Of a stretch of 39,851 nt of DNA, positions 1-13,362 are shown in pieces. The notes under the pieces are model-generated. The model was given only the letters and a program-made list of their open reading frames with translations. It was not told the DNA's origin and ran no database searches. Source of the stretch: a virus (lineage: Duplodnaviria > Caudoviricetes); the IMG/VR virus record IMGVR_UViG_3300043184_000018, positions 1-39,851 of that record; one strand, written 5' to 3'. Position 1 is the stretch's first letter; the number at the start of each line of letters is the position of its first letter. The position numbers were made by a program, and so were the translations under genes.

Positions 1-26
1 ACGTATGTAAGTTGAACGTATAGGTC

Positions 27-66
27 TATATGTACGTGCGTGTACGCGTGTGCGCGCGCGTACGTA
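27..66. repeat. 40-bp perfectly alternating pyrimidine/purine tract (Z-DNA/cruciform-prone)
   Basis: TATATGTACGTGCGTGTACGCGTGTGCGCGCGCGTACGTA alternates without a break; contains a GTACGCG...CGCGTAC inverted repeat. Confidence 0.85.
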
Positions 67-121
67 GGGCTGGGTCTTTTTGTTGCAGAAGTTGGTCGTT
101 TTTTGTGTAAACCTAGTAAAG

Positions 122-170
122 TTGCTTGGTTTTTTGAATTTGCGCAAAATTGCTTGATTTTTTGAATTTG
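122..170 (+). repeat. 21-bp direct repeat x2 overlapping the early promoter
   Basis: TTGCTTGGTTTTTTGAATTTG (122-142) and TTGCTTGATTTTTTGAATTTG (150-170), 20/21 identical. Confidence 0.85.
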
Positions 171-182
171 GGCTGGTATAAA
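154..182 (+). promoter_or_regulatory. sigma70-type early promoter
   Basis: TTGATT-17 bp-TATAAA with extended -10 TGn, in an AT-rich region upstream of the first + strand gene. Confidence 0.65.
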
Positions 183-220
183 TAAATTGTCGCTGCAGGA
201 AAGGCGACACGAGAGCCACT

Positions 221-511
221 ATGAAGAAAGAGCTGCTACACACGCCCTTAGCCGACTTTGTCGGCCCGAAAACCGCGAAGATCGGGAAGAACGAATTCGC
301 CGAATTGTGCGAGGTCAACGACGTTGCGCCTCACTTCAACCTCGAGAACTTGCCGAACCTTATCCGGTTCGCCTTAACGTTGCGCGGTGAGGACGGGCGG
401 CGACGCCCAAGTCTGGACACGGTCCGCAACTGGTGTAGGTTCGACTTTACCGGCAACAGCGACGACGCATGTCAGATTCGGCTGAATCGCGGGCGTACGC
501 GCATCGCTTAA
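221..511 (+). CDS. hypothetical protein, possible HTH-like DNA-binding protein
   Basis: 96 aa ATG ORF after the promoter; PSLDTVRNWCR resembles a recognition helix (weak). Confidence 0.6.
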   Translation: MKKELLHTPLADFVGPKTAKIGKNEFAELCEVNDVAPHFNLENLPNLIRFALTLRGEDGRRRPSLDTVRNWCRFDFTGNSDDACQIRLNRGRTRIA

Positions 512-517
512 CCTACC

Positions 518-535
518 GCCCCGGTTCGCCGGGGC
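518..535 (+). other. 7-bp GC hairpin with UUCG loop immediately 5' of twister 1
   Basis: GCCCCGG-TTCG-CCGGGGC; the same stem with a GCGA loop recurs at 1177 and 5962. Confidence 0.85.
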
Positions 536-587
536 TCCTTAACCACGCCGAAGACGGTCACAAGCCCGTATAAAGTGGGAGTGAGGA
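536..587 (+). ncRNA. twister ribozyme, type P1 (copy 1)
   Basis: P1 UCCU/AGGA; U^AA cleavage site (540/541); P2 CCAC/GUGG; T2 GC/GC; P4 ACGG/CCGU; L4 UCACAAGC; conserved GA; T1 CAC/GUG; fits the twister-P1 architecture element by element. Confidence 0.9.
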
Positions 588-596
588 AGACACACC

Positions 597-1016
597 ATGA
601 AAGAGTTTACAATCGAAAACCTAGCGGCTGACGAGGACTACAGTAGCCGCATCGAGTACGCCGAGACCCTCATCAAAGATGGGCGCAATCCGCTCGCGGC
701 GTGTATCGAAGACGGCTACGTCGACTACGCAATCTGGCTGATGTCTAACGGCTACGTCGAGAAGAGCGACGAAATGCGTGCCATCGCATGTATGGACCCG
801 GGTTACGCATACCTCTACGCGAGGTACATCCAACGCGCTCCGTGCGATGCTACCCGGGCCGCCGCGTGTATGGACCCGGGGTGCGCGTACCTTTACGCGC
901 ACCATGTTGATGGCGGCCCTCACCCCGCCACCCTTGCCGCCGCGTGCAAGAGCCCGCGTTACGCGTACATGTACGCGGTGTACGTTGACCACGCAACCCT
1001 CGATGACACCTGGTAA
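597..1016 (+). CDS. helical repeat protein (ACxDPGYAYLYA repeats), paralog of 5381-5869, probably C-terminally truncated
   Basis: 139 aa with ~26 aa repeats; GAGGA SD; repeat-like coding continues past the TAA. Confidence 0.8.
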   Translation: MKEFTIENLAADEDYSSRIEYAETLIKDGRNPLAACIEDGYVDYAIWLMSNGYVEKSDEMRAIACMDPGYAYLYARYIQRAPCDATRAAACMDPGCAYLYAHHVDGGPHPATLAAACKSPRYAYMYAVYVDHATLDDTW

Positions 1017-1080
1017 TCCGCCTGCAAGAACCCGCAGCACGAACACCTTTACAAACAGTGGGGGGGGGGGAAGACACACT

Positions 1081-1170
1081 ATGAAAGAAATCCAGAAGAA
1101 AGAATCCGAACTCGCCGTTTACCAATTCGCCGTTCATATGGAGGAGCGTAACGCGAACGCGCTACGCTGA
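1081..1170 (+). CDS. 29 aa microprotein MKEIQKKESELAVYQFAVHMEERNANALR (copy 1)
   Basis: ATG after a G-rich SD-like run; exact duplicate at 5866-5955; stops just before the hairpin-twister cassette. Confidence 0.6.
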   Translation: MKEIQKKESELAVYQFAVHMEERNANALR

Positions 1171-1176
1171 ACCCGT

Positions 1177-1194
1177 GCCCCGGGCGACCGGGGC
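1177..1194 (+). other. 7-bp GC hairpin with GNRA (GCGA) loop 5' of twister 2
   Basis: GCCCCGG-GCGA-CCGGGGC. Confidence 0.85.
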
Positions 1195-1196
1195 TC

Positions 1197-1248
1197 CCTC
1201 TAACCACGCCGACGCCGGTCCCAAGCCCGGGAAAAGTGGGAGGGGAGG
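1197..1248 (+). ncRNA. twister ribozyme, type P1 (copy 2)
   Basis: P1 CCUC/GAGG; U^AA (1201/1202); P2 CCAC/GUGG; P4 CCGG/CCGG; L4 UCCCAAGC; GA; T1 CCC/GGG; core GCCGGUCCCAAGCCCGG matches the well-known rice twister core as recalled. Confidence 0.92.
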
Positions 1249-1259
1249 AATACACAACC

Positions 1260-1454
1260 ATGAACCGACACTCGCAACACACCCAAACGACCGCCGACCG
1301 TATCACGATCAGACCCCTCCGCCAAGGGGGGTACGAACTGTACACGATGCGCCGCGGACAGTTTTTCAGCCGCGTGTACTACTTCATGCCCAAACAAGAT
1401 GCCCTGAAAGACTTCCGGGCATACGTTTCCGCTGAATTGCAAGAGGTACACTAG
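1260..1454 (+). CDS. hypothetical protein
   Basis: ATG at 1260 with GGAGG SD at 1244-1248; 64 aa. Confidence 0.7.
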   Translation: MNRHSQHTQTTADRITIRPLRQGGYELYTMRRGQFFSRVYYFMPKQDALKDFRAYVSAELQEVH

Positions 1455-1478
1455 TCAAGCCTGACAAGGTTTCACACC

Positions 1479-2075
1479 ATGAAAAACCAACACCAACACC
1501 AGCAACCGCTTAAACCCATCACCCGCGAGGCTTTCGAATCCGAAGTCTTCGATCACCACAAGCCCGCCGTCGCATTCATACGGTGGTGCCTCCACTACCG
1601 GCTGGACGTGCCGACCGAATGCGCGAAACACCACCCGGGTTATCTTTCATGGCTGATTTGGGAAGGATTCAATTGCGAATCCGCGCGTACGCGGTACTTG
1701 ACATGGAACAGCAAGGGGGACCTGATCTACAATCTGAGCCACGATGCAACTGCCGCGGCGGGCATCCACACAACCGTTTACGCGGGTCATGGCGCGAAAG
1801 TTGACGTGGGGTCGGGCTCCACAGTTACAGCCGGCTTTTACTCGAACATCACCGCCGGACATGACTCGATCGTTACCTGCGGTGGTGGCTCGGACGTCAT
1901 AGCGGGGGTGGGGTCGACCATTACTGCTGGGGACACAAGCTCGATCACCGTAAGATGGTACGACGAATCTGGGCGGTACAGATTCACCGCCCACTACGTC
2001 GACGAAAACGGCATCAAGCCTAACACGCCGTACCGGTGCAACGAGGATGGCAGTCTTTCGGAGGTGGAAGGGTGA
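1479..2075 (+). CDS. protein with 8-aa (S/T)xVTAG beta-solenoid-like repeats, paralog of 6453-6980
   Basis: 198 aa; GSTVTAG/YSNITAG/GSTITAG repeats; C-terminal ENGIKPNTPY motif. Confidence 0.85.
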   Translation: MKNQHQHQQPLKPITREAFESEVFDHHKPAVAFIRWCLHYRLDVPTECAKHHPGYLSWLIWEGFNCESARTRYLTWNSKGDLIYNLSHDATAAAGIHTTVYAGHGAKVDVGSGSTVTAGFYSNITAGHDSIVTCGGGSDVIAGVGSTITAGDTSSITVRWYDESGRYRFTAHYVDENGIKPNTPYRCNEDGSLSEVEG

Positions 2076-2401
2076 ACTGCCACTACCAATCAGTCAACGA
2101 GTTCCTTCGCGCCAACCGCCAAGATTGCCAAGACGCCGCCAACGCTCACCGGCTTCCGGATGAGGTTGAGGATTACGAGTTCTGGGGGGAACGCTTCACC
2201 GTCGCCACGCCGGGCGAACGCTCCGCCGGAACCCCGACCGAATGGTACGTTGACTTCCTCGAGCAGACCATCCGGGACATTGTCCGCGAGAGCGAGCGGG
2301 CGCGGGAGTACCTCCACATCGCACCCCCGCTCCCGGCAACCCCGGGGGACTTCGACCCTTTCGACATCGACCCGCTTAACATGGAGGCATTCGATGAATG
2401 A
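2072..2401 (+). CDS. hypothetical acidic protein
   Basis: GTG start overlapping the upstream TGA, GGAGG upstream; overlaps the next start. Confidence 0.7.
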   Translation: MNCHYQSVNEFLRANRQDCQDAANAHRLPDEVEDYEFWGERFTVATPGERSAGTPTEWYVDFLEQTIRDIVRESERAREYLHIAPPLPATPGDFDPFDIDPLNMEAFDE

Positions 2402-3140
2402 CCGGACAGCCGCGACCATCGGGGCGCGGCTGTCCGCCCCCGTGCCGAATGCCCTGCTCAGGGCCCGCACAGGGGCGAAAGGCCGGAAACTAACCTACAT
2501 TCCCGGACACCACGCGATCCGGATTGCGAACGAAGTCTTTGGATGGGATGGGTGGGCGCATGAAGTGACCCGCCTGGACCTCATGAACATGAGCCAGGTT
2601 AAACAGGACCGGGGAGAAAGCTGGTGCGTCTCTTTCATCGCCGTCGTGCGGGTCACGGTCACCGCACAAGGGCGTCCAGTCACAAGGGAGGACGTAGGGT
2701 TCGGGAGTGGCACGACCTACGACGAACACCCCGGAGACGCGATAGAGGCCGCCGTAAAAGAGGCCGTGACGGACGGCATAAAGCGGGCCCTGAAATCATT
2801 CGGCCCCGCACTTGGGCTCGACCTCTACGACGAAAAGTGGCGAGACGCCAACATCGACAAGACCACTGGCTTACCGAAGGCGAAGCACGAACCCCAACCG
2901 AAGGCCGCGCCAACCATCAGCCAACCGCGAGCCGCGTCCATCCTCGAACACGCAGGCTTTGAACGCGCGGCGGCCACGGAACTGATCCGGCAGCTGAAAG
3001 CCGCTGGGTACGACCCCGTGCGGGAAATCTGCCTCTACACCGGCGAACCTTCGCGCGAGGCATTCACCGCGCACATCGAACACCTCGTCACACGGGCGCA
3101 GACGCAAGATGCCGTAGACGAATTTCAACCCGAGGGTTAG
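2394..3140 (+). CDS. sak: Rad52/Rad22-family (Sak-like) single-strand annealing protein
   Basis: LTYIPGHHAIRIANEVFGWDGW, EDVGFGSG, AVKEAVTDGIKRALKSFGPALGLDLYD; GGAGG SD before ATG 2394. Confidence 0.92.
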   Translation: MNDRTAATIGARLSAPVPNALLRARTGAKGRKLTYIPGHHAIRIANEVFGWDGWAHEVTRLDLMNMSQVKQDRGESWCVSFIAVVRVTVTAQGRPVTREDVGFGSGTTYDEHPGDAIEAAVKEAVTDGIKRALKSFGPALGLDLYDEKWRDANIDKTTGLPKAKHEPQPKAAPTISQPRAASILEHAGFERAAATELIRQLKAAGYDPVREICLYTGEPSREAFTAHIEHLVTRAQTQDAVDEFQPEG

Positions 3141-3510
3141 GTGAATGGAACTTACGCACCCGCTCATCACACACAAGCGCGTCATCGACGTAGAACCCGC
3201 AAGATGTCATGACGTCCTTGATCCCCTTAACCAGATTGTCACAATCCGGACGGGTGATCTTGAAAACGACCTGCTCACGAACCGCCTTCCGGTGGGATTT
3301 CGGGTGGGGGAAGAACAAATCAAGTTCCAACCCCACCGGTCCATCCATCGGGGAAGTGGGCGCAAACGGAGCAATCCGCGCCGCAAGCTCCGCGATCTGA
3401 CGCGCGTAGGTGGCATCTCGGTACGTCCGAAGCTGGCCACCACGAGCGGACCAACGCCGCGATTGCGCGGTTATCGTCATCGGCGCACCCTCTAAAACTA
3501 CAAAGACCAC
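3088..3510 (-). CDS. rusA: RusA-family Holliday junction resolvase
   Basis: RPDCDNLVKGIKD...FYVDDALV catalytic Asp/Lys pattern; start uncertain (GTG 3510 or ATG 3480). Confidence 0.88.
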   Translation of the reverse strand: MVFVVLEGAPMTITAQSRRWSARGGQLRTYRDATYARQIAELAARIAPFAPTSPMDGPVGLELDLFFPHPKSHRKAVREQVVFKITRPDCDNLVKGIKDVMTSCGFYVDDALVCDERVRKFHSPNPRVEIRLRHLASAPV

Positions 3511-3595
3511 GAAAACAGTATGACCAAGACTAAGACAAACCTCAACGCTAGCGCGACTGGACGCGCCCACCGACCCCGCACCGCAGAGGCTAACC

Positions 3596-3991
3596 ATGAG
3601 TGACGTCTGCAAGCTGGGGGTTCTCACGACGACCGCCGCCGTGCCCGTCACCGACCCACCCAAACTCATCCGCGACAAGTCCGGGCGAGAGTTCTCGGAG
3701 ATGCGCTCGCGCTACAGGTCGGGAACCTACGAGTACACAGTCACCCTCACCTTCCGAGGGAAGACCGCGTGTGATACCGCCATGACCCTCACGCGCGGCG
3801 ACCTCATCTCCGTAAACGGTACGCCGTACACGCGCATCATCAGCTACAAGGACAAGTCCACTGGTGAGGAGAAAACAATGGCCATGCTCTACCTGACCTG
3901 CTTCGAGCCGCCCCAAATCCTCACGCGATCCGCGCGAGGCAACAACCCCCACGAGAGCGCAGGCGGGCAGGAGGACTGGTTCAATGTCTGA
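3596..3991 (+). CDS. ssb: single-stranded DNA-binding protein (OB fold)
   Basis: FRGKTA..LTRGDLISVNG..YKDKSTGE pattern, acidic/aromatic tail QEDWFNV, next to the annealase. Confidence 0.78.
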   Translation: MSDVCKLGVLTTTAAVPVTDPPKLIRDKSGREFSEMRSRYRSGTYEYTVTLTFRGKTACDTAMTLTRGDLISVNGTPYTRIISYKDKSTGEEKTMAMLYLTCFEPPQILTRSARGNNPHESAGGQEDWFNV

Positions 3992-4064
3992 GGCGGTGAC
4001 CGTCCTCTGCGTTTTCATCATTGGCGTTGTTGTTGGGTACAGTAACCGCGCAGGCAAGCCATGA
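3984..4064 (+). CDS. 26 aa single-TM microprotein MSEAVTVLCVFIIGVVVGYSNRAGKP
   Basis: GGAGGA SD at 3970-3975, overlaps the ssb stop, hydrophobic core. Confidence 0.5.
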   Translation: MSEAVTVLCVFIIGVVVGYSNRAGKP

Positions 4065-4120
4065 CCCTGCCGTGAACAAACCCGAAGAAACGCCACACCA
4101 GACAGACCACAAGTAACACC

Positions 4121-4315
4121 ATGAAGAACCAACCCATCAACCCCGGAGACCAATTCCGCGACGAAAGCGGCAACCTCGTCACCATCGTCAAGACGTGGAA
4201 AGAAGGCAACGGCAACTGGTACGAAACCTCAGCCGGTGAACGCGTCATCAAGTCCACCATCTCGTACCGCCTCAGTAAACGCATCTGGACCCGCGTCGAG
4301 GAGACAAACCCATGA
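4121..4315 (+). CDS. hypothetical protein
   Basis: 64 aa, ATGA-coupled to the next gene. Confidence 0.7.
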   Translation: MKNQPINPGDQFRDESGNLVTIVKTWKEGNGNWYETSAGERVIKSTISYRLSKRIWTRVEETNP

Positions 4316-4620
4316 AAAACAACCAAGAAGAACAAGACTCGCAGTACTACATCGTCCGTTGCAAAGGGGCGGGCGTATGGTTCGGAAAGATCGCCCAGCG
4401 CACCGGCGACGAGGTAGTCATGACCGACGCCCGAAGGCTTTGGCGGTTTAGCGGCGCGACCGAATGCGCGTGGCTATCCGTCAATGGCGTGACGAGGCCC
4501 GGCCAATGCAAGTTCACTATCTGGGTAAAGACCGTCACCGTGCTCAACGTTGTCGAGTTCATCCCATGTACGGATAAAGCGTCTAAGTCACTCTCCGAGG
4601 TGCCAGCGTGGACCCCGTAA
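4312..4620 (+). CDS. conserved phage protein (DUF6948-like)
   Basis: YIVRCKGAGVWFG...ARRLWRFSGA...EFIPCT; family recalled as preceding GxGxG-repeat genes. Confidence 0.75.
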   Translation: MKNNQEEQDSQYYIVRCKGAGVWFGKIAQRTGDEVVMTDARRLWRFSGATECAWLSVNGVTRPGQCKFTIWVKTVTVLNVVEFIPCTDKASKSLSEVPAWTP

Positions 4621-5384
4621 CCGCATTCCTAAGCGTGGCCTATGGCCATGGCGATGGCGATGGCGATGGCGATGGCTATGGCTATGGCGATGGCGATGGC
4701 GATGGCTCTGGCTCTGGCGATGGCTATGGCTATGGCGATGGCTATGGCTCTGGCGATGGCGATGGCTGTGGTTATGGCTCTGGCTCTGGCTATGGCTATG
4801 GCTATGGCGATGGCAATGGCCATGGCGATGGCTATGGCTATGGCGATGGCTGTGGCTATGGCTCAGGCCGTGGCTCAGCCGATGGCGATGGCGATGGCGA
4901 TGGCGATGGTACCGGCATATACGAAATCAACGGCGAGCGAGTCTACAAGATCGACGGCGTCCAAACCATCATCCGCAAAGTAAAGGGGAACATCGCCAAA
5001 GGGTTTATCTTGACCCGCGCGTTAACGCTGACGCCCACCTACGTCGCCAAGGTCGGCGACTGCTTCGCGCACGGCGAGACTGCCGCTAAAGCACTACACG
5101 ACGCCACCGAGAAAAGCCTGATCAACGCACCTGCCGAGGAGCGCATCCGTATCGCGCTTGCATGGTTCGACATCTCTACCGGCCACACCGGAAAGGAGTG
5201 GCTCAACTTTCACCGCGCGATCACCGGTAGCTGTGAGCAAGGTTGTAAATCCTTTGCCTCAGATCGCGGCATTGACCTAGACAAGCCCTACACGCTCGCG
5301 GAGTTCATCTCCGCGGCGGATGGCGCATACCCGCGCGGACAAGAGGCGATCGACATTCTGAAGCAGAAACTACAACAACCATGA
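4608..5384 (+). CDS. Gly-X (GDGYG) repeat protein with globular C-terminal domain
   Basis: 258 aa; GGAGG SD before GTG; ~90 aa GD/GY/GS repeats, then FAHGET...FHRAITGSCEQG. Confidence 0.85.
   Translation: MDPVTAFLSVAYGHGDGDGDGDGYGYGDGDGDGSGSGDGYGYGDGYGSGDGDGCGYGSGSGYGYGYGDGNGHGDGYGYGDGCGYGSGRGSADGDGDGDGDGTGIYEINGERVYKIDGVQTIIRKVKGNIAKGFILTRALTLTPTYVAKVGDCFAHGETAAKALHDATEKSLINAPAEERIRIALAWFDISTGHTGKEWLNFHRAITGSCEQGCKSFASDRGIDLDKPYTLAEFISAADGAYPRGQEAIDILKQKLQQP
4638..4910 (+). repeat. hexamer minisatellite (GGCGAT/GGCTAT/GGCTCT)n
   Basis: About 45 degenerate GGCNNT units encoding Gly-X. Confidence 0.9.
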
Positions 5385-5869
5385 AAGAGTTTACAATCAA
5401 AAACCTCAAGGCAGACGACGCACTGGCAAACCTCATACGATACGCAAGAAGGCTCATCAAAGATGGGCGCAATCCGCTGGCCGCATGTATCGAAGATAAG
5501 AATCTCTTCGCTGCCAGCTGGCTCTTCAAAAACGGCTACGTAGCAAAGAGTGATCAAATGCGTGATCTCGCATGTATGGACCCGGGTTACGCATACCTCT
5601 ACGCGAGGTACATCCAACGCGCTCCGTGCGACCATACTCGCGACGCCGCGTGCATGGTCCCGGGCTACGCGTACCTTTACGCGCACCATGTTGATGGCGG
5701 CTCTCACCCCGCCACCCTTGCCGCCGCGTGCATGGAACCCCAGTACGCGTACCTGTACGCGCACTATGTCCATGGCGGCCCTCACCCCGCTACCCTTGCC
5801 GCCGCGTCTAGGGACACGTACTACGCCGGACTATACCGCGAGTGGGAGGAATCACTACAAAAGCCATGA
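5381..5869 (+). CDS. helical repeat protein, paralog of 597-1016
   Basis: 162 aa; same N-terminus (MKEFTI..LIKDGRNPLAACIED) and repeats; ATGA overlaps at both ends. Confidence 0.85.
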   Translation: MKEFTIKNLKADDALANLIRYARRLIKDGRNPLAACIEDKNLFAASWLFKNGYVAKSDQMRDLACMDPGYAYLYARYIQRAPCDHTRDAACMVPGYAYLYAHHVDGGSHPATLAAACMEPQYAYLYAHYVHGGPHPATLAAASRDTYYAGLYREWEESLQKP

Positions 5870-5955
5870 AAGAAATCCAGAAGAAAGAATCCGAACTCGC
5901 CGTTTACCAATTCGCCGTTCATATGGAGGAGCGTAACGCGAACGCGCTACGCTGA
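5866..5955 (+). CDS. 29 aa microprotein (copy 2, identical to 1081-1170)
   Basis: ATGA overlap with the upstream stop; GGAGG upstream. Confidence 0.6.
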   Translation: MKEIQKKESELAVYQFAVHMEERNANALR

Positions 5956-5961
5956 ACCCGT

Positions 5962-6024
5962 GCCCCGGGCGACCGGGGCCTCTAACCACGCCGACGCCGG
6001 TCCCAATCCCGGGTGAAAGTGGGA
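5962..6024 (+). pseudogene. hairpin plus degenerate twister ribozyme (copy 3)
   Basis: Hairpin, UAA, P2, P4 and GA retained; L4 AAGC>AAUC breaks T2; the 3' strands of T1 and P1 are absent. Confidence 0.8.
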
Positions 6025-6063
6025 AGAATCACTACAACAACCACAAACCGACAAGGACACACC

Positions 6064-6456
6064 ATGAACAACAACAACCAAGAACCGAAGTCAATCAAAG
6101 CCCCCTACTCCGTTCGCGATGCCGCTTGGGAGATCTACGCCGAAGCAAGCCTTGGCATGGGCGGCCACGACGAAGACTTTGCCGCCGCCCTGCAACGAGA
6201 CGGTGAAAAGCTACTCGCGCTAGCCGCTGAAGAGCAAGGCGAAAAGTCACGGCACGAAATGCTAGAAGCTTATGCCGTAATGGGCAAAGTAGTCTTCTCC
6301 GAGATATGCGAGGCTGTCGCCAAGCGTCTCGTTGATATTGCCACTGAAGAGGAATCAACGCTTCACGATTACCTTCAAGCTGCAAGAGCCGCTGTTAGCC
6401 ATTTAGTGCTAATCGCCATCACCGCAGACACGCTCGTAGAGGAGGTGAAGCCATGA
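6064..6456 (+). CDS. hypothetical helical protein
   Basis: AAGGA SD before ATG 6064; ATGA-coupled downstream. Confidence 0.75.
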   Translation: MNNNNQEPKSIKAPYSVRDAAWEIYAEASLGMGGHDEDFAAALQRDGEKLLALAAEEQGEKSRHEMLEAYAVMGKVVFSEICEAVAKRLVDIATEEESTLHDYLQAARAAVSHLVLIAITADTLVEEVKP

Positions 6457-6980
6457 GCGAACCGCAACTTATCCCCATCACGCGCGAGACGATTCTGGAA
6501 AATGTGTGCAACCCAATACCCCGCGCATTTGCCATGCAGTGCATTGAGAGCGGGCTGGACGTGCCGACCGAATGCGCGAAACACCACCCGGGTTATCTTT
6601 CATGGCTGATTGGGGAAGGATTCAATTGCGAATCTGCGCGTACGCCGTTTCTGACATGGGACAGCGAGGGGCATATGACCTACACGGTGGGTGACTATGC
6701 GCTCATAACATCGGGCTATAAAACGCAAATCACGGCGGGCGACTGCTCGACTATTGCTGGATGCGGGGATTCGGCCCTTGCTTGCGGCGATTATTCGACC
6801 GTTATTGCGGGAGAAAGATCGACTGTCACCGCCGGGGAGGGTAGCTCGATCATTGTAAGGTGGTTTAACGAATCTGGGCGGTACAGATTCACCGCCCACT
6901 ACGTCGACGAAAACGGCATCAAGCCTAACACGCCGTACCGGTGCAACGAGGATGGCAGTCTTACCGAGGTGAAGCCATGA
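6453..6980 (+). CDS. 8-aa repeat protein, paralog of 1479-2075
   Basis: 175 aa; identical LDVPTECAKHHPGYLSWLI and ESGRYRFTAHYVDENGIKPNTPYRCNEDGSL blocks. Confidence 0.85.
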   Translation: MSEPQLIPITRETILENVCNPIPRAFAMQCIESGLDVPTECAKHHPGYLSWLIGEGFNCESARTPFLTWDSEGHMTYTVGDYALITSGYKTQITAGDCSTIAGCGDSALACGDYSTVIAGERSTVTAGEGSSIIVRWFNESGRYRFTAHYVDENGIKPNTPYRCNEDGSLTEVKP

Positions 6981-7366
6981 CGATACCGAGCATCTTCGAA
7001 GGGCTTAGCGAGGAGGACATTGAAGCGATCCGAAGCAGGCAAACAAACTTGATAAAGGATTTTTGGTTAACGGAACATGAGACTAGTGTCAAAGGCAGAA
7101 CGTTAATCAACAAGCCGCTTTTTGGTGGCAACATCAATTGTTACGTATGTGCTGGACGAAGCTCTTCGCTATGGAGATTCAGCCCGATTGCCAACCACTG
7201 GGTTTTGGCGACGTGGAGATTCATGTTAGACGATCAACCAGGCCCGGCCATTTCGGACGCCTCCGATCACTCAGCCACCGCTACAAAACTCGCCGCCCAA
7301 ATGGCATACGAGGTCTGCAAGATGCTAGGCCTACCAACGACCGGACTGCCGGAGGCGGAGAAGTGA
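6977..7366 (+). CDS. hypothetical protein
   Basis: GAGGTG SD, ATGA overlap. Confidence 0.7.
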   Translation: MTIPSIFEGLSEEDIEAIRSRQTNLIKDFWLTEHETSVKGRTLINKPLFGGNINCYVCAGRSSSLWRFSPIANHWVLATWRFMLDDQPGPAISDASDHSATATKLAAQMAYEVCKMLGLPTTGLPEAEK

Positions 7367-7782
7367 AACCCGACATTGCAACATGCATCATTCGGGAACT
7401 GGAGCGCGATAGCTTTGACCCCATCCTACTGCCTTTAACCGACAATGTTCGCGAGAAGGCAGAAAGCGGTGAAGACTTCACTGCCTTATGTTTATACAGG
7501 CTAAAAGACTCGGAACTCGAAATCTTTTGCGAAAGGGGGCGTTACTGCGGATTAGTATGCGCCCATTGCAAAGTCTCGCTCAGCAATGCGTACGCGGCTA
7601 GTTCATATAGAATAGCTCGTGGAGACACCAAATGGCGGTTCATTTCGTGCTACGAGCCGTGGGCAAAGTTGCCTGAGCAAAAATCAAAGGCTGACCGAGA
7701 CGCTTGTCGCGAGTTAGCCCGGCAGGTTATCCGCGAAATGAAAGCGATTATTGAACTCCCCGAGGCGCAGTTATGGAAATGA
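7363..7782 (+). CDS. hypothetical Cys-rich protein
   Basis: GTGA overlap, GGAGG SD; CGLVCAHC. Confidence 0.65.
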   Translation: MKPDIATCIIRELERDSFDPILLPLTDNVREKAESGEDFTALCLYRLKDSELEIFCERGRYCGLVCAHCKVSLSNAYAASSYRIARGDTKWRFISCYEPWAKLPEQKSKADRDACRELARQVIREMKAIIELPEAQLWK

Positions 7783-8279
7783 AACTCCGAATTACTAACC
7801 TACGCGAATGGCTTCCGTCCCGCGCTCGCCAACACCCCGTCACGACGATCGTCGCCCACGCGACGGCGGGCGCATCGGCTACCTCGTCTATCGCGTGGCT
7901 CTACCGCCTAGCCCGCGACCTGATCCGAGGCAACGAGGCCAGCTACCACTACATCATCGAGCGGGACGGGTCCGTCACGAAATGCGTACCAATCACGCGC
8001 GTGGCGTTCCACGCTGGACGAAGCGTAGGGCCGAACGGCCCGAATGTCAACAACTACTCAATCGGCATCGCGTTCGCCAACCGCAACGACGGCGTCGAGC
8101 GCGTCACACCAGCTCAAGAATCTGCCTTCTATGCGCTAGTCGCCGAACTTGCGGTCGCATTTCCCGACCTCAAGTTTGTGACGACGCACTACGCGATCTC
8201 CCCGCGCCGCAAGACCGACCCCGTCAAATGGATGCCGGACGCGCGGAGGTTGCCCGATAGGGTGAGGGTGTGGCTGTGA
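7779..8279 (+). CDS. N-acetylmuramoyl-L-alanine amidase (Amidase_2/AmpD/T7 lysozyme family)
   Basis: IVAHAT, ASYHYIIERDG, AFHAG, NNYSIGI, THYAISPRRKTDP Zn-ligand pattern. Confidence 0.92.
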   Translation: MKLRITNLREWLPSRARQHPVTTIVAHATAGASATSSIAWLYRLARDLIRGNEASYHYIIERDGSVTKCVPITRVAFHAGRSVGPNGPNVNNYSIGIAFANRNDGVERVTPAQESAFYALVAELAVAFPDLKFVTTHYAISPRRKTDPVKWMPDARRLPDRVRVWL

Positions 8280-9259
8280 ACCCAGACGATTTCGCACGTG
8301 CACCATTTCCCTACTTCGGCGGCAAGAGCCGCGCCGCCGAGATGATTTGGCAACGCCTCGGCGCGGACATTGGCAACTATGTAGAACCGTTCTGCGGGTC
8401 CTGTGCGGTGGCACTAGCGCGGCCCGCTTCATTCAAGGGTTGGATCACACTCAACGACCTCGACGGGTTTGTTGTGAACTTTTGGCGGTCAATGATTCAT
8501 GACCCGGTCACGGTTGCTCAACACGCGGCGAACCCGGTTATCGAGGCTGACCTGCACGCAAGGCACCTTCACTTAGTGAATATGCGTGACCGGTTGACTG
8601 AGCGGCTGATGGCCGACCCTGATTATTACGATGCGAAGGCTGCCGCATGGTGGGCGTGGGGCGCGTGTTGCAATATAGCGGGCGGATGGTGTAGCGGCGA
8701 CGGTCCTTGGGTTGCTGGTCTAGACGATGAAGGTTTTTTAACGTTGACTTTGCGTGAAAAGGGTAGTGGACGGCAGGGCGTCAACCGGCAACTGCCGCAT
8801 CTAGGTGGCGGACAGGGCGTCAACCGGCAACTGCCGCATCTAGGTGGCGGGCGGGTAGATTGGCTATCGGAATGGTTTCGTGAGCTTTCGCGGCTACTTG
8901 TAAACGCCCACGTGACGAACGGAAGTTGGGCACGCGTCATGTCCGTAGGAACGCTTACGAGAAACGGCGTTGCGGGCATATTGCTCGACCCGCCATACAG
9001 CCTGACAAATGAGGTTTACGCGTGTGATGGCAACCAAATTTCAGCGCAAGTCCGCGAGTGGTGCAAAGCGAACGGCGCAAACCCCGCGCTCCGGATAGCC
9101 CTATGCGGGCACAGCGGCGAAGGGCACGAAGAACTCGAATCCGCCGGTTGGCTGGTGAGCACGTGGCACAAGGGCGGCGGCTATCAAGGCGCAGACGACC
9201 GTGAACGTATCTGGTTCAGCCCACATTGCAATTCTGAACTGGGCGGGCTTTTTGAGTAA
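8270..9259 (+). CDS. DNA adenine methyltransferase (D12/Dam-like)
   Basis: FPYFGGKS, YVEPFCGS, LNDLD and DPPY motifs. Confidence 0.92.
   Translation: MAVNPDDFARAPFPYFGGKSRAAEMIWQRLGADIGNYVEPFCGSCAVALARPASFKGWITLNDLDGFVVNFWRSMIHDPVTVAQHAANPVIEADLHARHLHLVNMRDRLTERLMADPDYYDAKAAAWWAWGACCNIAGGWCSGDGPWVAGLDDEGFLTLTLREKGSGRQGVNRQLPHLGGGQGVNRQLPHLGGGRVDWLSEWFRELSRLLVNAHVTNGSWARVMSVGTLTRNGVAGILLDPPYSLTNEVYACDGNQISAQVREWCKANGANPALRIALCGHSGEGHEELESAGWLVSTWHKGGGYQGADDRERIWFSPHCNSELGGLFE
8774..8851 (+). repeat. 39-bp in-frame tandem duplication in the methyltransferase
   Basis: QGVNRQLPHLGGG x2, 38/39 nt identical. Confidence 0.95.
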
Positions 9260-9294
9260 CATTTTCCGAAAACAATATGGTAAGGTAGCTTGCG

Positions 9295-9534
9295 GTGACA
9301 CCCCAGAATAAACACAACGAAACCGATGACCTAATGCTTCCGTTTGAATCTGTGGCCAAGCTTTATGCGCTCCAGCGACAGGTGGACGAAAAGCAAAGGT
9401 TACTCGACGAGATGATTCGCGCACATCAACAGGCCCGGGACGAATTTCGCAAGGTAAACCATGTCACGGCTATTGTGGTTATCGCAATTTGCGTGGCACT
9501 TGCGCTTGCTGGCTTTGCCGCGGGGGCCCTGTGA
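9295..9534 (+). CDS. coiled-coil protein with C-terminal TM helix
   Basis: 79 aa; TAIVVIAICVALALAGFAAGAL. Confidence 0.65.
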   Translation: MTPQNKHNETDDLMLPFESVAKLYALQRQVDEKQRLLDEMIRAHQQARDEFRKVNHVTAIVVIAICVALALAGFAAGAL

Positions 9535-9740
9535 TTCGCGAGCTTTCAGTCGGGGACGTGATTGTTTCCCCGTTCGGGGAGCCGTACAACATCACTCACA
9601 TTTGGGATGGTGATACATGGCGAAACCGAATTTACACAACCGATAAGGGTCGCAGGTTCTTGTTGGGGGAGCTTTGCGCTCTCATTAACTTGCACGGGTG
9701 GGGCTACCGCCTTAAAGGGGAGCCAGTAGAACAACGATGA
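9531..9740 (+). CDS. hypothetical protein
   Basis: GTGA and ATGA overlaps at the two ends. Confidence 0.6.
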   Translation: MIRELSVGDVIVSPFGEPYNITHIWDGDTWRNRIYTTDKGRRFLLGELCALINLHGWGYRLKGEPVEQR

Positions 9741-10150
9741 ACACACTACAGCAACGATTCGCAGACATCGCCGCCTCCATCGAGGCGCGTCAGGCCGCTC
9801 TGACCCCAGAGGCTGCCACTCTTGACATGTACCTCGCGGCGAAAGTTGACCTGAAATCCGCGGAGTCCCGGGTGAGGGAACTTCGCGACGAGATTATTGC
9901 CCTAGTGGAAGGCGGGGCGAACATTGTGCTCGATGAGTGCTACCCTCACGTTGCGGTCACAGCTAAGGATGCCGTTGATGAAGCGATGGCGATGGCCATC
10001 CTCGGCGACGACTGCCCTCTTACGGCGGTGGTTGACACGAAGAAGGTGCTTGGCATGGTGAAGGCGGGCAAGATTTCCGGGGAAGACGCGCAGAAAATTA
10101 TCAAGCGCACCGAGGTGAAGACACTCAGCATCCGGAAGGTGAAGGCATGA
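9737..10150 (+). CDS. hypothetical coiled-coil protein
   Basis: 137 aa, translationally coupled on both sides. Confidence 0.75.
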   Translation: MNTLQQRFADIAASIEARQAALTPEAATLDMYLAAKVDLKSAESRVRELRDEIIALVEGGANIVLDECYPHVAVTAKDAVDEAMAMAILGDDCPLTAVVDTKKVLGMVKAGKISGEDAQKIIKRTEVKTLSIRKVKA

Positions 10151-10677
10151 TCACCCCTAAGGATGTGCCTGCGTTTCGGTCGAACACCGGCTGGAGGGAC
10201 GCGTACTGCGCAGGGCTCTTTGACCTCGTGGAGATGGTCGCGGAGTCGCTCGGCGAAAATGAAACCCGCGCGACGACCCTGGACTGCATTGCGGGTTGCG
10301 TGTTGAGGCTTTCCGCTAACCTTGACGACGTGTACGCTATCGTGTCGCAAAGCCGAGAAAAGGGTCTGGCCGCGATGCGGAGCCACCTTGAGTCGGACGA
10401 TCTGACCTACTCAGAGATCGCGGAGCGGTTTGGCTTGAGGCTGTCTACAGTAAGTTACTACGCGCGGCAATGGGGGCTGTCGCGTAGCGTCAGAGCGCGG
10501 TCTAAGAGGGCAGAGCAAGAGGCCAAGGTGCTCGAGATGGCGAAGCAACCCTACGTTCGTGCATCAGATATTGTGCGGGCAACGGGAGTTTCGCGCTTTC
10601 ACGTGGACAAAATCTTGAAGGAGGCGGGGGTTACGCTCACCGGTTCCCGAAAGATGGATACTGAAACAGAGGGGTAG
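10147..10677 (+). CDS. DNA-binding protein with two HTH-like segments
   Basis: LTYSEIAERFGLRLSTVSYY and ASDIVRATGVSRFHVDKIL. Confidence 0.8.
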   Translation: MITPKDVPAFRSNTGWRDAYCAGLFDLVEMVAESLGENETRATTLDCIAGCVLRLSANLDDVYAIVSQSREKGLAAMRSHLESDDLTYSEIAERFGLRLSTVSYYARQWGLSRSVRARSKRAEQEAKVLEMAKQPYVRASDIVRATGVSRFHVDKILKEAGVTLTGSRKMDTETEG

Positions 10678-10681
10678 TTCT

Positions 10682-10870
10682 ATGCCAGACATCGCCATGT
10701 GCGTAAACAAAGATTGTCCATTTCGCCACAAGTGTTACCGTTTCATGGCGGTACCCGACACGCATCAATCCTACATGGTCATCTTCCCGAACACTGATGG
10801 CACGTGCGACCAGTTTCTCCCGCTTAACAGCGATGGTCGCGCTTTCAAGGGGGAAGAAGATGGCCGGTAA
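10682..10870 (+). CDS. small Cys-rich phage protein
   Basis: MPDIAMC-x4-CP-x4-CYRF...C; GAGGGG SD. Confidence 0.75.
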   Translation: MPDIAMCVNKDCPFRHKCYRFMAVPDTHQSYMVIFPNTDGTCDQFLPLNSDGRAFKGEEDGR

Positions 10871-11912
10871 GCCGTGGCTCATCGAGGAGGATGAATACCT
10901 GCGCGAGCATTACCCCAAGGGTACAGACCTAGTAACTCTTGCGGAGGTGCTTGGCCGGACCGTTGCGTCCGTGCGCAACCGGGCACGTGAGTTAGAACTG
11001 CGATGGGCATCGGGCCGCACGTTCAGTATCGCGCAAGCCATGTCGCCCCCCCGCTCTATACCCAGCCTTCTAGAGCAGCAATTCGAACGGTACCGGCACA
11101 AGCAGGAAAACGCGAAACAGAAGCAGTCCGGGATAGACATCATGATTCACGAACCGGGGCCGTTCGGGCTACTCTGCTTTGGCGACCCGCACGTGGGGGA
11201 CGACGGTTGTGATATGGAACAGCTGATCGCCGACATGGATTTCGCTCGGGCTACCGAGCACGTGTACGCGATCAACATGGGTGATCTATCGAACAACTGG
11301 GTCGGGCCGCTCAAGCGTCTATGGGCGCACCAAGGCACGACCGAGGAGGAGGAGGAGGCACTCGTCGCATGGTTGATCGAGTACCTTCCGTGGGTGGTCG
11401 TGATTCTTGGGAACCATGACAAGTGGTCACCGATGGCCGCCCGTATTTGCCGGGACCGTAACGTATTCACCGTCTCCCACGGCGGACGGCTAGTCTTCCG
11501 GACGCCGGGCGGTAGACCGCTTTACATGGACGCGAGGCACGACCATCGCGGGTTCTCGATGTACAACCCCGCACACGCCCAGATACGGAAGAAGTTCCGT
11601 GGTAACCCGTGCGACGTAATCATCGGGGCGCACACCCATGAGAGTGGCTACACCAAGCTTTACAACGACAACAGTAAGACGCTTGGACATTGTGTACAGG
11701 TGGCGTCCTACAAGGACGCAGACGAGTACGCAGACGCCAAAGACCTATCAAACTCAAAGATTAGCCCGAGTGTACTGATTGTGGTGGACCCCCAGTGTGA
11801 TGGGATCGGGTTCGTCCACGTGTTCGAAGACCTTTCTTACGGTGCCCTGTTCTTGCAAGCCTTGCGTGATAGATATGAACACACCCACCCCTCTTCCGAT
11901 ACTCCCTCGTAG
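10860..11912 (+). CDS. calcineurin-like metallophosphoesterase with N-terminal HTH/Myb-like domain
   Basis: GDPH, GD, GNHD, H and AHTH motifs; N-terminal W.xEEDEYL...LAEVLGRTVASVRNRA. Confidence 0.88.
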   Translation: MAGKPWLIEEDEYLREHYPKGTDLVTLAEVLGRTVASVRNRARELELRWASGRTFSIAQAMSPPRSIPSLLEQQFERYRHKQENAKQKQSGIDIMIHEPGPFGLLCFGDPHVGDDGCDMEQLIADMDFARATEHVYAINMGDLSNNWVGPLKRLWAHQGTTEEEEEALVAWLIEYLPWVVVILGNHDKWSPMAARICRDRNVFTVSHGGRLVFRTPGGRPLYMDARHDHRGFSMYNPAHAQIRKKFRGNPCDVIIGAHTHESGYTKLYNDNSKTLGHCVQVASYKDADEYADAKDLSNSKISPSVLIVVDPQCDGIGFVHVFEDLSYGALFLQALRDRYEHTHPSSDTPS

Positions 11913-11930
11913 CGTGATTCTCCGACAATA

Positions 11931-13307
11931 ATGGAGTTTGATTCTTCACACCCGCTTCACAACGTTGAGGCGGAGATGGCCGTGCTGGGCTCTATGCTCC
12001 TGTCTGCACGCGCCACGGATACCTGCGTGTCCATGCTTGCGGTAGATGACTTCTATCGCCCCGCACACCAGACGCTTTTCGGGGTCATGCGCGGGCTCTG
12101 CGTTCGCGGCGTAGAGATTGACTACCTCACGTTGAAGGACACGCTGGTGCAGAGCGATGCGCTTGACAACGTGGGCGGCGAGGCGTATCTAGTCCACGTG
12201 GCGGAGTTTGTTCCGTCGCCCGCTAACGCGGAGTACTACGCGGATATTGTGCTTGGCTTGTCGCGCATCCGGCGCATGAGGAAGGCCATGCAGTCGGCGT
12301 TGAACCTGCTCGTTGACCCTGAGGCTGGCACCCCGGAAGAGCGTATCGAGAAGGCGGAAGGTGCAATTTTCGATGTCGGGAAAGGCTCTGCTCAGTCCTA
12401 CTTCCAAGGCGTCTCGGAGCTTGCCGACGAATACCTTTCGGTGGTGTCCAAGGTGCATGGTACAGGCCGCCCGCTCAAGGGCCTCACGGTGGGCTTTGAC
12501 GCGCTGGATGATGTGACCACGGGGTTCGGGCCGGGTGATTTCGTGGTGATCGGGGCGCGGCCCGGCATAGGAAAGACCGCGCTCGTGCTCGATTTCGCGC
12601 TAAATGTAGCGAGGCAAATTGCGATGCAGGAAACGCGGGGCTCGGTGGCGTTCTTCTCCCTTGAAATGTCTTCGGCCCAATTGATGTCGCGGATGGCATC
12701 CATGATGGCGGGCATCTCCTCAAAACGCCTCAAGCAAGACTGGCGATTAAGCGACGAGGAATACGTTGCCCTGTCTGACTCCGCGAGCATGATTAGCGAC
12801 CTCCCCATCTACATTGATGACCGCACCGATCTTACGTCTACAGACATGCGGGCCAAATGCAGGCGGCTTAAGCAGGACAAAGGTCTTTCCCTTATCATTC
12901 TGGACTACCTGCAACTCATGAAGGGCACACGTAAGTTTGAGAACCGCGTAAACGAAGTGGCGGAGTTCGCGCGGTCGTGCAAACGCCTCGCCAAAGAGCT
13001 AGGTGTTCCCCTGATCGCGCTTGCTCAGCTATCGCGGCAAGTCGAGAACCGCGCCGGGCCCAAGAAGCCACAACTCTCCGACCTTCGGGACTCTGGTTCC
13101 ATAGAGGCGGATGCCGACATCGTGCTCCTACTTAACCGAAAGGAAGGCCAGGCGGATGCCGATGAACTGAAGCGCAACCCAAACCACGTACAGGAAGTAG
13201 AAGTCGATGTCGCGAAGAACCGGCATGGTGAAACTAGGACCATCCGGCTTGGGTTCCAACCGTCATACACGCGCTACCGGAACGTTGATCAAGACGCGTG
13301 GAGCTAA
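11931..13307 (+). CDS. dnaB: replicative DNA helicase DnaB
   Basis: EAEMAVLG, GARPGIGKT, FFSLEM, LDYLQL, LAQLSR, DLRDSGSIEADAD, KNRHG. Confidence 0.97.
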   Translation: MEFDSSHPLHNVEAEMAVLGSMLLSARATDTCVSMLAVDDFYRPAHQTLFGVMRGLCVRGVEIDYLTLKDTLVQSDALDNVGGEAYLVHVAEFVPSPANAEYYADIVLGLSRIRRMRKAMQSALNLLVDPEAGTPEERIEKAEGAIFDVGKGSAQSYFQGVSELADEYLSVVSKVHGTGRPLKGLTVGFDALDDVTTGFGPGDFVVIGARPGIGKTALVLDFALNVARQIAMQETRGSVAFFSLEMSSAQLMSRMASMMAGISSKRLKQDWRLSDEEYVALSDSASMISDLPIYIDDRTDLTSTDMRAKCRRLKQDKGLSLIILDYLQLMKGTRKFENRVNEVAEFARSCKRLAKELGVPLIALAQLSRQVENRAGPKKPQLSDLRDSGSIEADADIVLLLNRKEGQADADELKRNPNHVQEVEVDVAKNRHGETRTIRLGFQPSYTRYRNVDQDAWS

Positions 13308-13308
13308 C

Positions 13309-13338
13309 AAAAAAAGCCCGCCCCGCAAGGAGGCGAGC
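13309..13338 (-). terminator. intrinsic terminator of the late (- strand) operon
   Basis: Minus-strand GCUCGCCUCC-UUGC-GGGGCGGGC followed by U7, where the two arms converge. Confidence 0.8.
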
Positions 13339-13362
13339 CAAGAACAACGTACCCACATATAA

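Follow-up and report, generated by a model that had tools for sequence, protein, structure and literature searches.

Type-P1 twister ribozymes between putative early genes of an uncultured phage overlap the Shine–Dalgarno sequence of the next gene

A freshwater phage genome and its putative early region

The window analysed here, 39,851 nucleotides long, is the whole of IMG/VR record IMGVR_UViG_3300043184_000018, a member of the Caudoviricetes that is classed as linear and estimated to be 64% complete. It encodes a terminase, portal-like and head proteins, DnaB, an amidase, a Rad52-like recombinase and RusA. Given that the best named relatives of its DnaB are from Fimbriimonadaceae (61%) and Fimbriimonas ginsengisoli (53%), the host likely belongs to the Armatimonadota. 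Searches with the protein encoded at 5381 returned no phage relatives, DnaB matched viral and genome contigs at only 34–42%, and the terminase, with a best other match of 35% over most of its length, revealed no close phage relative; annotated phages produced only short matches (≤43% of the query), none of them spanning the whole unit. The single public run that contains this DNA is a freshwater metagenome, and no RNA run is listed with it among public sequencing runs, which says nothing on expression. The contigs of that DNA run, possibly the window's own source, show no alternative letters over positions 1–7200; a loose end at 518 in these contigs did not recur on a second look. A 32,326-base contig of the run covers 1–813 and extends beyond the window's first base; should that contig reach the window's far end, this would make the genome a circle that is almost complete.

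On the plus strand, a likely early promoter was read at 154–182 (TTGATT, 17 nt, TATAAA, with TG just upstream of the −10 element); the consensus scan, which demands a T at hexamer position 6, did not call it. Two copies of TTTTTGAATTTG (at 131 and 159) flank the promoter, and their overlap with what is likely a sigma-70-type element (131–182) could mark an operator. We infer that the small plus-strand genes that follow constitute an early operon. The first ORF (221–511, 96 aa) has no family by profile searches or in the ESM Atlas. The second (597–1016, 139 aa) encodes a repeat protein without a Pfam or PHROG match, from a large repeat-protein family that has no Pfam name, and has its N-terminus in common with a paralogue at 5381–5869, for which 557 relatives were found at E ≤ 0.001. 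Its reading frame ends at the TAA at 1014–1016, and a paralogue-like tail runs on in frame to a run of 11 G residues (1060–1070), shortly ahead of the ATG at 1081; the stretch 1014–1083 possibly records a recent truncation or a slippery tract. A 29-codon ORF (1081–1170) and a 64-aa ORF (1260–1454) complete the series, the latter matching only itself and owing its gene status to the Shine–Dalgarno (SD) sequence, start context and gene call in this DNA alone. Elsewhere, the 258-aa product of an ORF at 4608–5384, beside DUF6948, contains a long Gly-Asp/Tyr dipeptide repeat, and many plus-strand starts have ACACC, CAACC or AAGCC ahead of the ATG. SD-like motifs precede most listed starts of this phage, typically by 4–9 nt, which makes SD-led initiation plausible.

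The ORFs at 221 and 1081 each stop 6 nt ahead of a GC-rich 7-bp hairpin, P0, located at 518–535 with a UUCG loop and at 1177–1194 with a GCGA loop. Rho-independent termination was rejected for these hairpins, which have no U-tract and are followed by UCCUUAA and UCCCUCUAA instead; they are not among the nine terminator-like sites found in 1–14000. Next to each hairpin, on the same strand, lies a type-P1 twister, copy 1 at 536–587 and copy 2 at 1197–1248, matching Rfam family RF03160 over the full model (1–68) with cmscan scores of 55.0 bits (E = 1.7e-10) and 57.9 bits (E = 2.6e-11), respectively. Both scores fall under the family's gathering score of 67.2 bits, so that an Rfam scan at the gathering threshold returns zero matches. 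This cut-off is strict for phage members, because all 18 twister-P1 matches among 20 other viral loci are also below it (40–60.6 bits).

A pair-by-pair check found the same pairing in the two copies (P0, 7/7; P1, 4 bp; P2, 4/4; T2, 2/2; P4, 4/4; T1, 3/3), giving the stems P1, P2 and P4 with termini in P1 and the pseudoknots T1 and T2 that define RF03160. The conserved L1 and L4 bases, the U^A site, the general acid A and the general base G are likewise in place: U540^A541, A542, U558, A562–A563, G579 and A580 in copy 1, and U1201^A1202, A1203, U1219, A1223–A1224, G1240 and A1241 in copy 2, with cuts predicted at U540/A541 and U1201/A1202 and with G579 and G1240 as the general bases. P3 and P5 stems are absent from both model matches, leaving no P3/P5 insert able to sense a ligand. 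Between the copies, five core pairs are altered on both sides (3/4 in P1, 1/4 in P4 and 1/3 in T1), although the three double changes in P1 could stem from one register slip per strand rather than from three events. The folding z-scores of this phage's three copies (the third is described below) are weak (−1.96, −1.05 and −1.34), as expected for pseudoknotted RNAs such as twisters, and were not counted as support. Taken by their sequence, copies 1 and 2 are genuine members of a known ribozyme class, and self-cleavage is predicted. A sequence-only reading of this DNA had described two complete type-P1 twisters with compensatory changes in P1, P4 and T1 and had proposed a twister-P1 scan as the check; it holds up in these respects, the matches lying below the gathering score and the changes in P1 perhaps reflecting the slip, and all of its coordinates are correct. 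No other Rfam family was found in 7900–39851 at E ≤ 1, and miRNA and snoRNA matches within 1–8000 were dismissed as weak or as lying on simple repeats.

The same reading had placed the SD of the following gene in the 3′ strand of P1/T1, and the sequence bears this out for both copies. The likely SD of the gene at 597 is GAGGA at 583–587, 9 nt before the ATG, with G583 in T1 and AGGA forming the 3′ strand of P1; that of the gene at 1260 is GGAGG at 1244–1248, 11 nt before the ATG, with G1244 in T1 and the rest in P1. Duplexes with an E. coli-type anti-SD tail amount to −8.3 and −11.2 kcal/mol, respectively. The distance from T1 to the start codon is 13 nt for copy 1 and 15 nt for copy 2, and the SD spacings of 9 and 11 nt are at or past the long end of the phage's range. 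P1 is unextended at 4 bp, position 5 being a mismatch in each copy. The P1 5′ strand and cut site of copy 1 (535–541) read CUCCUUA, resembling the 3′ end of the E. coli 16S rRNA, and a nested fold lengthens P1 of this copy to 6 bp, into T1, modelling a possible inactive state that would hide the SD more fully.

A third, decayed copy at 5979–6031 on the plus strand, overlooked in the sequence-only reading, matches RF03160 with 27.7 bits (E = 0.012). Here the pseudoknots of the family are broken, T1 keeping 1/3 pairs and T2, with a C·U mismatch, 1/2, and the inner P1 pairs are gone. Its P0 hairpin (5962–5979) is intact, and 5866–5979 equals 1081–1194 exactly (114 nt, comprising the 29-codon ORF and P0), the changes relative to copy 2 being concentrated in the ribozyme. 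Since pseudoknot mismatches reduce cleavage in published tolerance data (PMC11662667), copy 3 is likely weak or inactive. The next start, ATG 6064, has a separate SD, AAGGA at 6053–6057, with 6-nt spacing and outside the decayed ribozyme. An SD outside the decayed copy and inside both intact ones fits SD release, as a single case in which decay itself erased the old SD. Copy 3 lies in a duplication, whereby the block 594–2066 recurs in part at 5378–6971, ~4.8–4.9 kb away, with 82–100% identity and shuffled gene order.

Twisters and translation starts in other viral genomes

Two pattern scans of IMG/VR yielded 31 and 135 loci, the second covering 8 of 64 parts of the database, with full flanks for 80 loci and an estimated ~1000 such stretches overall. 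A structural descriptor recognised 117 distinct P1 twisters, or 101 after flank clustering and 96 without the window's two and three with short flanks; it assigned no type-P3 twister in the surveyed viral loci. Starts were called by our own SD-plus-ORF rule, and related loci were merged from their k-mers and by manual inspection rather than on a tree. Among the 96 clusters, the SD was outside the ribozyme in 48, inside in 4 and overlapping with an outside alternative in 2, whereas 16 were followed by an SD-less ORF and 26 gave no call.

The positions of these twisters relative to genes depart from random expectation. An SD-led start lies within 50 nt downstream of 54/98 viral P1 twisters (the window's two included), compared to 401/2867 random positions; in 48/71, an ORF on the same strand ends upstream of the cut and no more than 90 nt from it, compared to 22/71 on the opposite strand and 183/710 at random; and a hairpin of −6 kcal/mol or better abuts P1 in 64/99, compared to 24% of 495 random windows. 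In this partial IMG/VR sample, viral twisters thus mostly share one design, namely stop, hairpin, twister, linker, SD and start. The SD position differs from that of our phage: among the 44 SD-led twisters of the 135-locus sample it is wholly outside the ribozyme in 40, only inside in 2 and overlapping with an outside alternative in 2 more, which makes SD-in-P1 a minority form. In this sample, T1 and the start are separated by a median of 29 nt, roughly room for a ribosome, and the 13 and 15 nt of this phage belong to the short tail. Together, the stop, hairpin and SD statistics and the 40/44 outside cases indicate that gene-to-gene cutting is the common feature and SD overlap an optional one. 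The hairpin–twister–SD–ATG arrangement that the sequence-only reading had suggested looking for in related phages does recur in other phages, with the SD mostly outside the ribozyme. Moreover, the P1 3′ strand is SD-like in 25/48 spaced twisters that have a separate SD, so that loss of the linker alone would place an SD in P1.

In loci L001, L004, L006, L014 and L019, a RAGATH-24 RNA lies just upstream of the twister and an AT-rich SD-less start ~23 nt past T1. Three to four type-P5 twisters form an array spanning less than 1.5 kb in L002 and in L005. A single contig bears three twisters (L074–L076), and a 1010-nt metagenome contig (L170, 1–1010) has a similar twister before an SD-less ORF in a different context. 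In L010/L192, the hairpin and twister are followed by a 5-codon ORF (MESTP), the likely SD of which is P1 and the stop of which overlaps the next ATG.

A scan aimed at the compact form returned 101 loci in 65 clusters, with the SD inside the ribozyme in 21, or ~14 lineages after hand-collapsing kin, some of these calls being weak (L199, L223). The compact SD-in-P1 form is thus real and recurs across lineages. At 11 distinct Mu-like loci, AGGAGG sits inside a P1 of at least 6 bp, 6 of them before a transposase-type ORF. These loci (L177, L183, L186, L204, L230 and L245, also L178, L187, L203, L229 and L242) stand before a transposase-type ORF or a neighbouring gene, and Pfam PF09039 was matched in L177 and L204. 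Such Mu-like prophage loci are stronger candidates for gated translation than our phage, with the leaders of L177 and L204 the strongest.

P1 is slightly longer in compact than in spaced twisters (4.5 versus 3.7 bp, p = 0.033), with no difference in P1 energy (p = 0.17). Positions 5–6 are paired in 46/68 cases in compact twisters compared to 37.3 after shuffling (reached in 7/3000 shuffles), and in 27/40 compared to 20.2 after collapse of kin (34/5000). Spaced twisters have no such excess (29/96 compared to 24.8; 359/3000). Because the shuffle ignores descent, we take the excess as a hint of anti-SD selection in some compact lineages.

Possible consequences of cleavage

When a twister cleaves at U^A, the upstream piece is left with a cyclic phosphate and the downstream piece with a 5′-OH. 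We consider it reasonably probable that the twisters of this phage serve constitutive, host-independent mRNA processing, with a modest release of the SD as a side effect. Copies 1 and 2 would cut the nascent early message constitutively at 540/541 and 1201/1202, splitting the polycistronic early mRNA into gene-sized, separately protected pieces without host enzymes. The upstream piece would end in P0 plus 5–7 nt and a 2′,3′-cyclic phosphate, much like a terminator end, whereas the 5′-OH of the downstream piece, at A+1, would lie hidden within the double pseudoknot. Once cut off, the anti-SD strand of 4 nt would depart quickly, easing translation without gating by a signal. Self-processing of the polycistronic early message, as the sequence-only reading had it, is well backed by both structure and context, and has already been proposed in print for phage ribozymes (PMC3088659, PMC6765202). 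Hints against plain processing include the pairing at positions 5–6 in compact twisters and the presence of the SD inside both intact copies.

These hints point to cleavage-gated translation, in which the SD stays locked in P1/T1 until the cut and factors that slow cleavage (P0, Mg2+ or a protein) set the level of the downstream protein; we regard this as unlikely. By sequence and by a nested model that leaves out pseudoknots, the SD is paired in P1 before the cut and freed after it, the opening cost falling from 5.5 to 1.9 kcal/mol in copy 1 and from 5.5 to 3.5 kcal/mol in copy 2 (drops of 3.6 and 2.0 kcal/mol). An engineered twister with the SD in P1 gave 5-fold expression (PMC5052635), and P1 is retained although it is dispensable for catalysis (PMC11662667). 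The targeted scan, with its 21 SD-inside clusters of 65 (14 after hand collapse), and the AGGAGG-bearing Mu-like loci argue in the same direction, as does the above-shuffle pairing in compact but not spaced twisters, on a shuffle blind to relatedness. Against gating stand the mere 2 inside cases and 2 overlaps among the 44 SD-led twisters, an SD-like P1 strand in about half of the spaced cases anyway, P1 energies that do not differ between the two forms and a mismatch-bounded 4-bp P1 here. The engineered design also stayed low in expression because its structure persists after cutting (PMC5052635), and a ribosome footprint from −20 to +13 (577–609 and 1240–1272) reaches over T1 and the catalytic G and, for copy 1, into P2, so that T1 and the catalytic G remain within the footprint even after the cut. 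The proposal that cleavage releases the SD is physically plausible, whereas a role as a switch fits poorly with these features, and no regulatory input is visible.

The duration of such a lock can be gauged from published rates. A model twister cleaves with kobs ~2.4/min (PMC5408937), which corresponds to a half-time of ~17 s, and an unregulated lock would therefore be short. The uncut state may nevertheless outlast this estimate, since P0-bearing twisters cleave less in vitro (0.40 versus 0.85; PMC11662667). The G579A and G1240A mutants put forward in the sequence-only reading as inactive controls would be poor ones, because both positions lie within the ribosome footprint and natural G-to-A variants still cleave (0.54 versus 0.76; PMC11662667). 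A broader version of gating holds that phages repeatedly evolved it, with the P1 5′ strand of compact twisters selected as an anti-SD, protein made only after the self-cut and the delay set by P0 or cell conditions, in the first early genes of this phage, in Mu-like transposase genes and in about a dozen other lineages. This we find doubtful.

Cleavage might instead destabilise the downstream piece, as the 5′-OH product of glmS is degraded by RNase J1 (PMC3997798); a glmS-like attack of RNase J-type exonucleases on the 5′-OH end would make the downstream early mRNA short-lived and limit the early proteins. Our impression that many surveyed loci seem Firmicute-like by their strong SDs, and the likely Armatimonadota host indicated by DnaB, would be compatible with such a decay trigger. 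We nonetheless consider it distinctly improbable, given that most viral twisters retain strong SDs and a hairpin upstream, which fits expression of both pieces, and that in E. coli neither expression nor mRNA changed when a twister cut in a 5′ UTR whose SD was free (PMC5052635).

We give very little credence to a coupling in the reverse direction, whereby a ribosome on the SD would prevent cutting by melting T1 and P2, leaving only untranslated message to be cut. The footprint over the catalytic G, T1 and part of P2 would allow it, and T1 mismatches do reduce cleavage (PMC11662667), but folding should come first, because the ribozyme would be complete before the AUG exits RNA polymerase, and the idea is inapplicable to the 40/44 spaced cases. 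Just as improbable is a recombination cassette, a hairpin–twister–start unit that mainly shuffles early genes and is near-neutral for expression: the partial duplication, the decay of copy 3 despite its unchanged upstream 114 nt and the varied neighbours (0/17 early proteins match any of 267 twister loci) suit it, but two copies that retain every core pair with compensatory changes require selection on the fold.

Relation to known systems

Constitutive processing, as favoured here, would mean, if cleavage protects both pieces, that phages bring their own enzyme-free mRNA processing. Were gating true, a design thought to be synthetic would exist in nature, sharpest before Mu-like transposase genes with AGGAGG in a 6-bp P1; engineered aptazyme switches would then have their equivalent in nature, and twisters in bacteria a defined part in gene control. 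Compact and spaced twisters are natural controls for each other, which makes the role directly testable; our phage is a clean yet weak case, being uncultured, with a 4-bp P1 and no relatives found.

The layout has an analogue in the early region of phage T7, where a polycistronic early mRNA is cut at RNase III sites and the resulting pieces retain hairpins that protect them. The T7 sites differ in that they require a host enzyme and yield 5′-phosphate and 3′-OH ends, whereas here the RNA would cut itself.

Another parallel is offered by the clustered prophage hammerheads and the HHphage ribozyme of haloviruses HF1 and HF2 (PMC3088659), where several self-cleaving RNAs likewise lie between phage genes and were proposed to divide long transcripts into mRNAs the size of a gene. 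In vitro, polycistronic RNAs of 2 kb are cleaved by the clustered prophage hammerheads, one set of which is also active in E. coli; HHphage lies 13 nt ahead of the start of an early gene, and a 5′ end has been mapped close to its cut (PMC3088659). These belong to another ribozyme class, and SD masking goes unmentioned in the accessible part of that paper, where the terms "ribosome binding" and "translation" occur 0 times. A review extends the processing proposal to twisters, terming it unproven (PMC6765202), and reviews treat what twisters and hammerheads do close to phage genes as an open question (PMC6765202, PMC5408937).

In structure, the two copies match the type-P1 twister with an optional P0 (RF03160; PMC5408937, PMC11662667), sharing P1, P2, P4, T1, T2, the U^A site, the acid A, the base G and an upstream P0. 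They differ from the standard RF03160 twister in lacking P3 and P5, in scoring below the gathering cut-off and in a P1 3′ strand that also serves a phage gene as its SD. P0 occurs in ~10% of a published test set (PMC11662667), compared to the abutting hairpin in 64/99 viral twisters here, under differing definitions.

Self-cleavage upstream of a bacterial gene that leaves a 5′-OH on the coding piece is also known from glmS (PMC3997798), which is ligand-dependent and triggers decay, whereas no ligand site is evident in this phage's twisters. In fungal RNA viruses, 5′-UTR ribozymes that cleave near the start codon are tied to translation initiation, as shown for a chrysovirus hammerhead, on eukaryotic ribosomes and with no SD; that study discarded matches from DNA phages (PMC13725137). 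Full-text literature searches listed no paper on a natural SD-in-P1 twister in phages, and published twister alignments may already hold cases. A further parallel is the engineered P1–SD switch (PMC5052635), in which SD and anti-SD form P1 in a 5′ UTR and cleavage raises the reporter 5-fold over an inactive control, at a low absolute level. That construct is synthetic and monocistronic and operates in E. coli, whereas the natural P1 here has 4 bp, with the SD partly in T1. Processing of mRNA by phage ribozymes has been proposed and SD-in-P1 has been engineered; the twisters of this phage represent a compact minority form whose P1 supplies the SD of the next gene.
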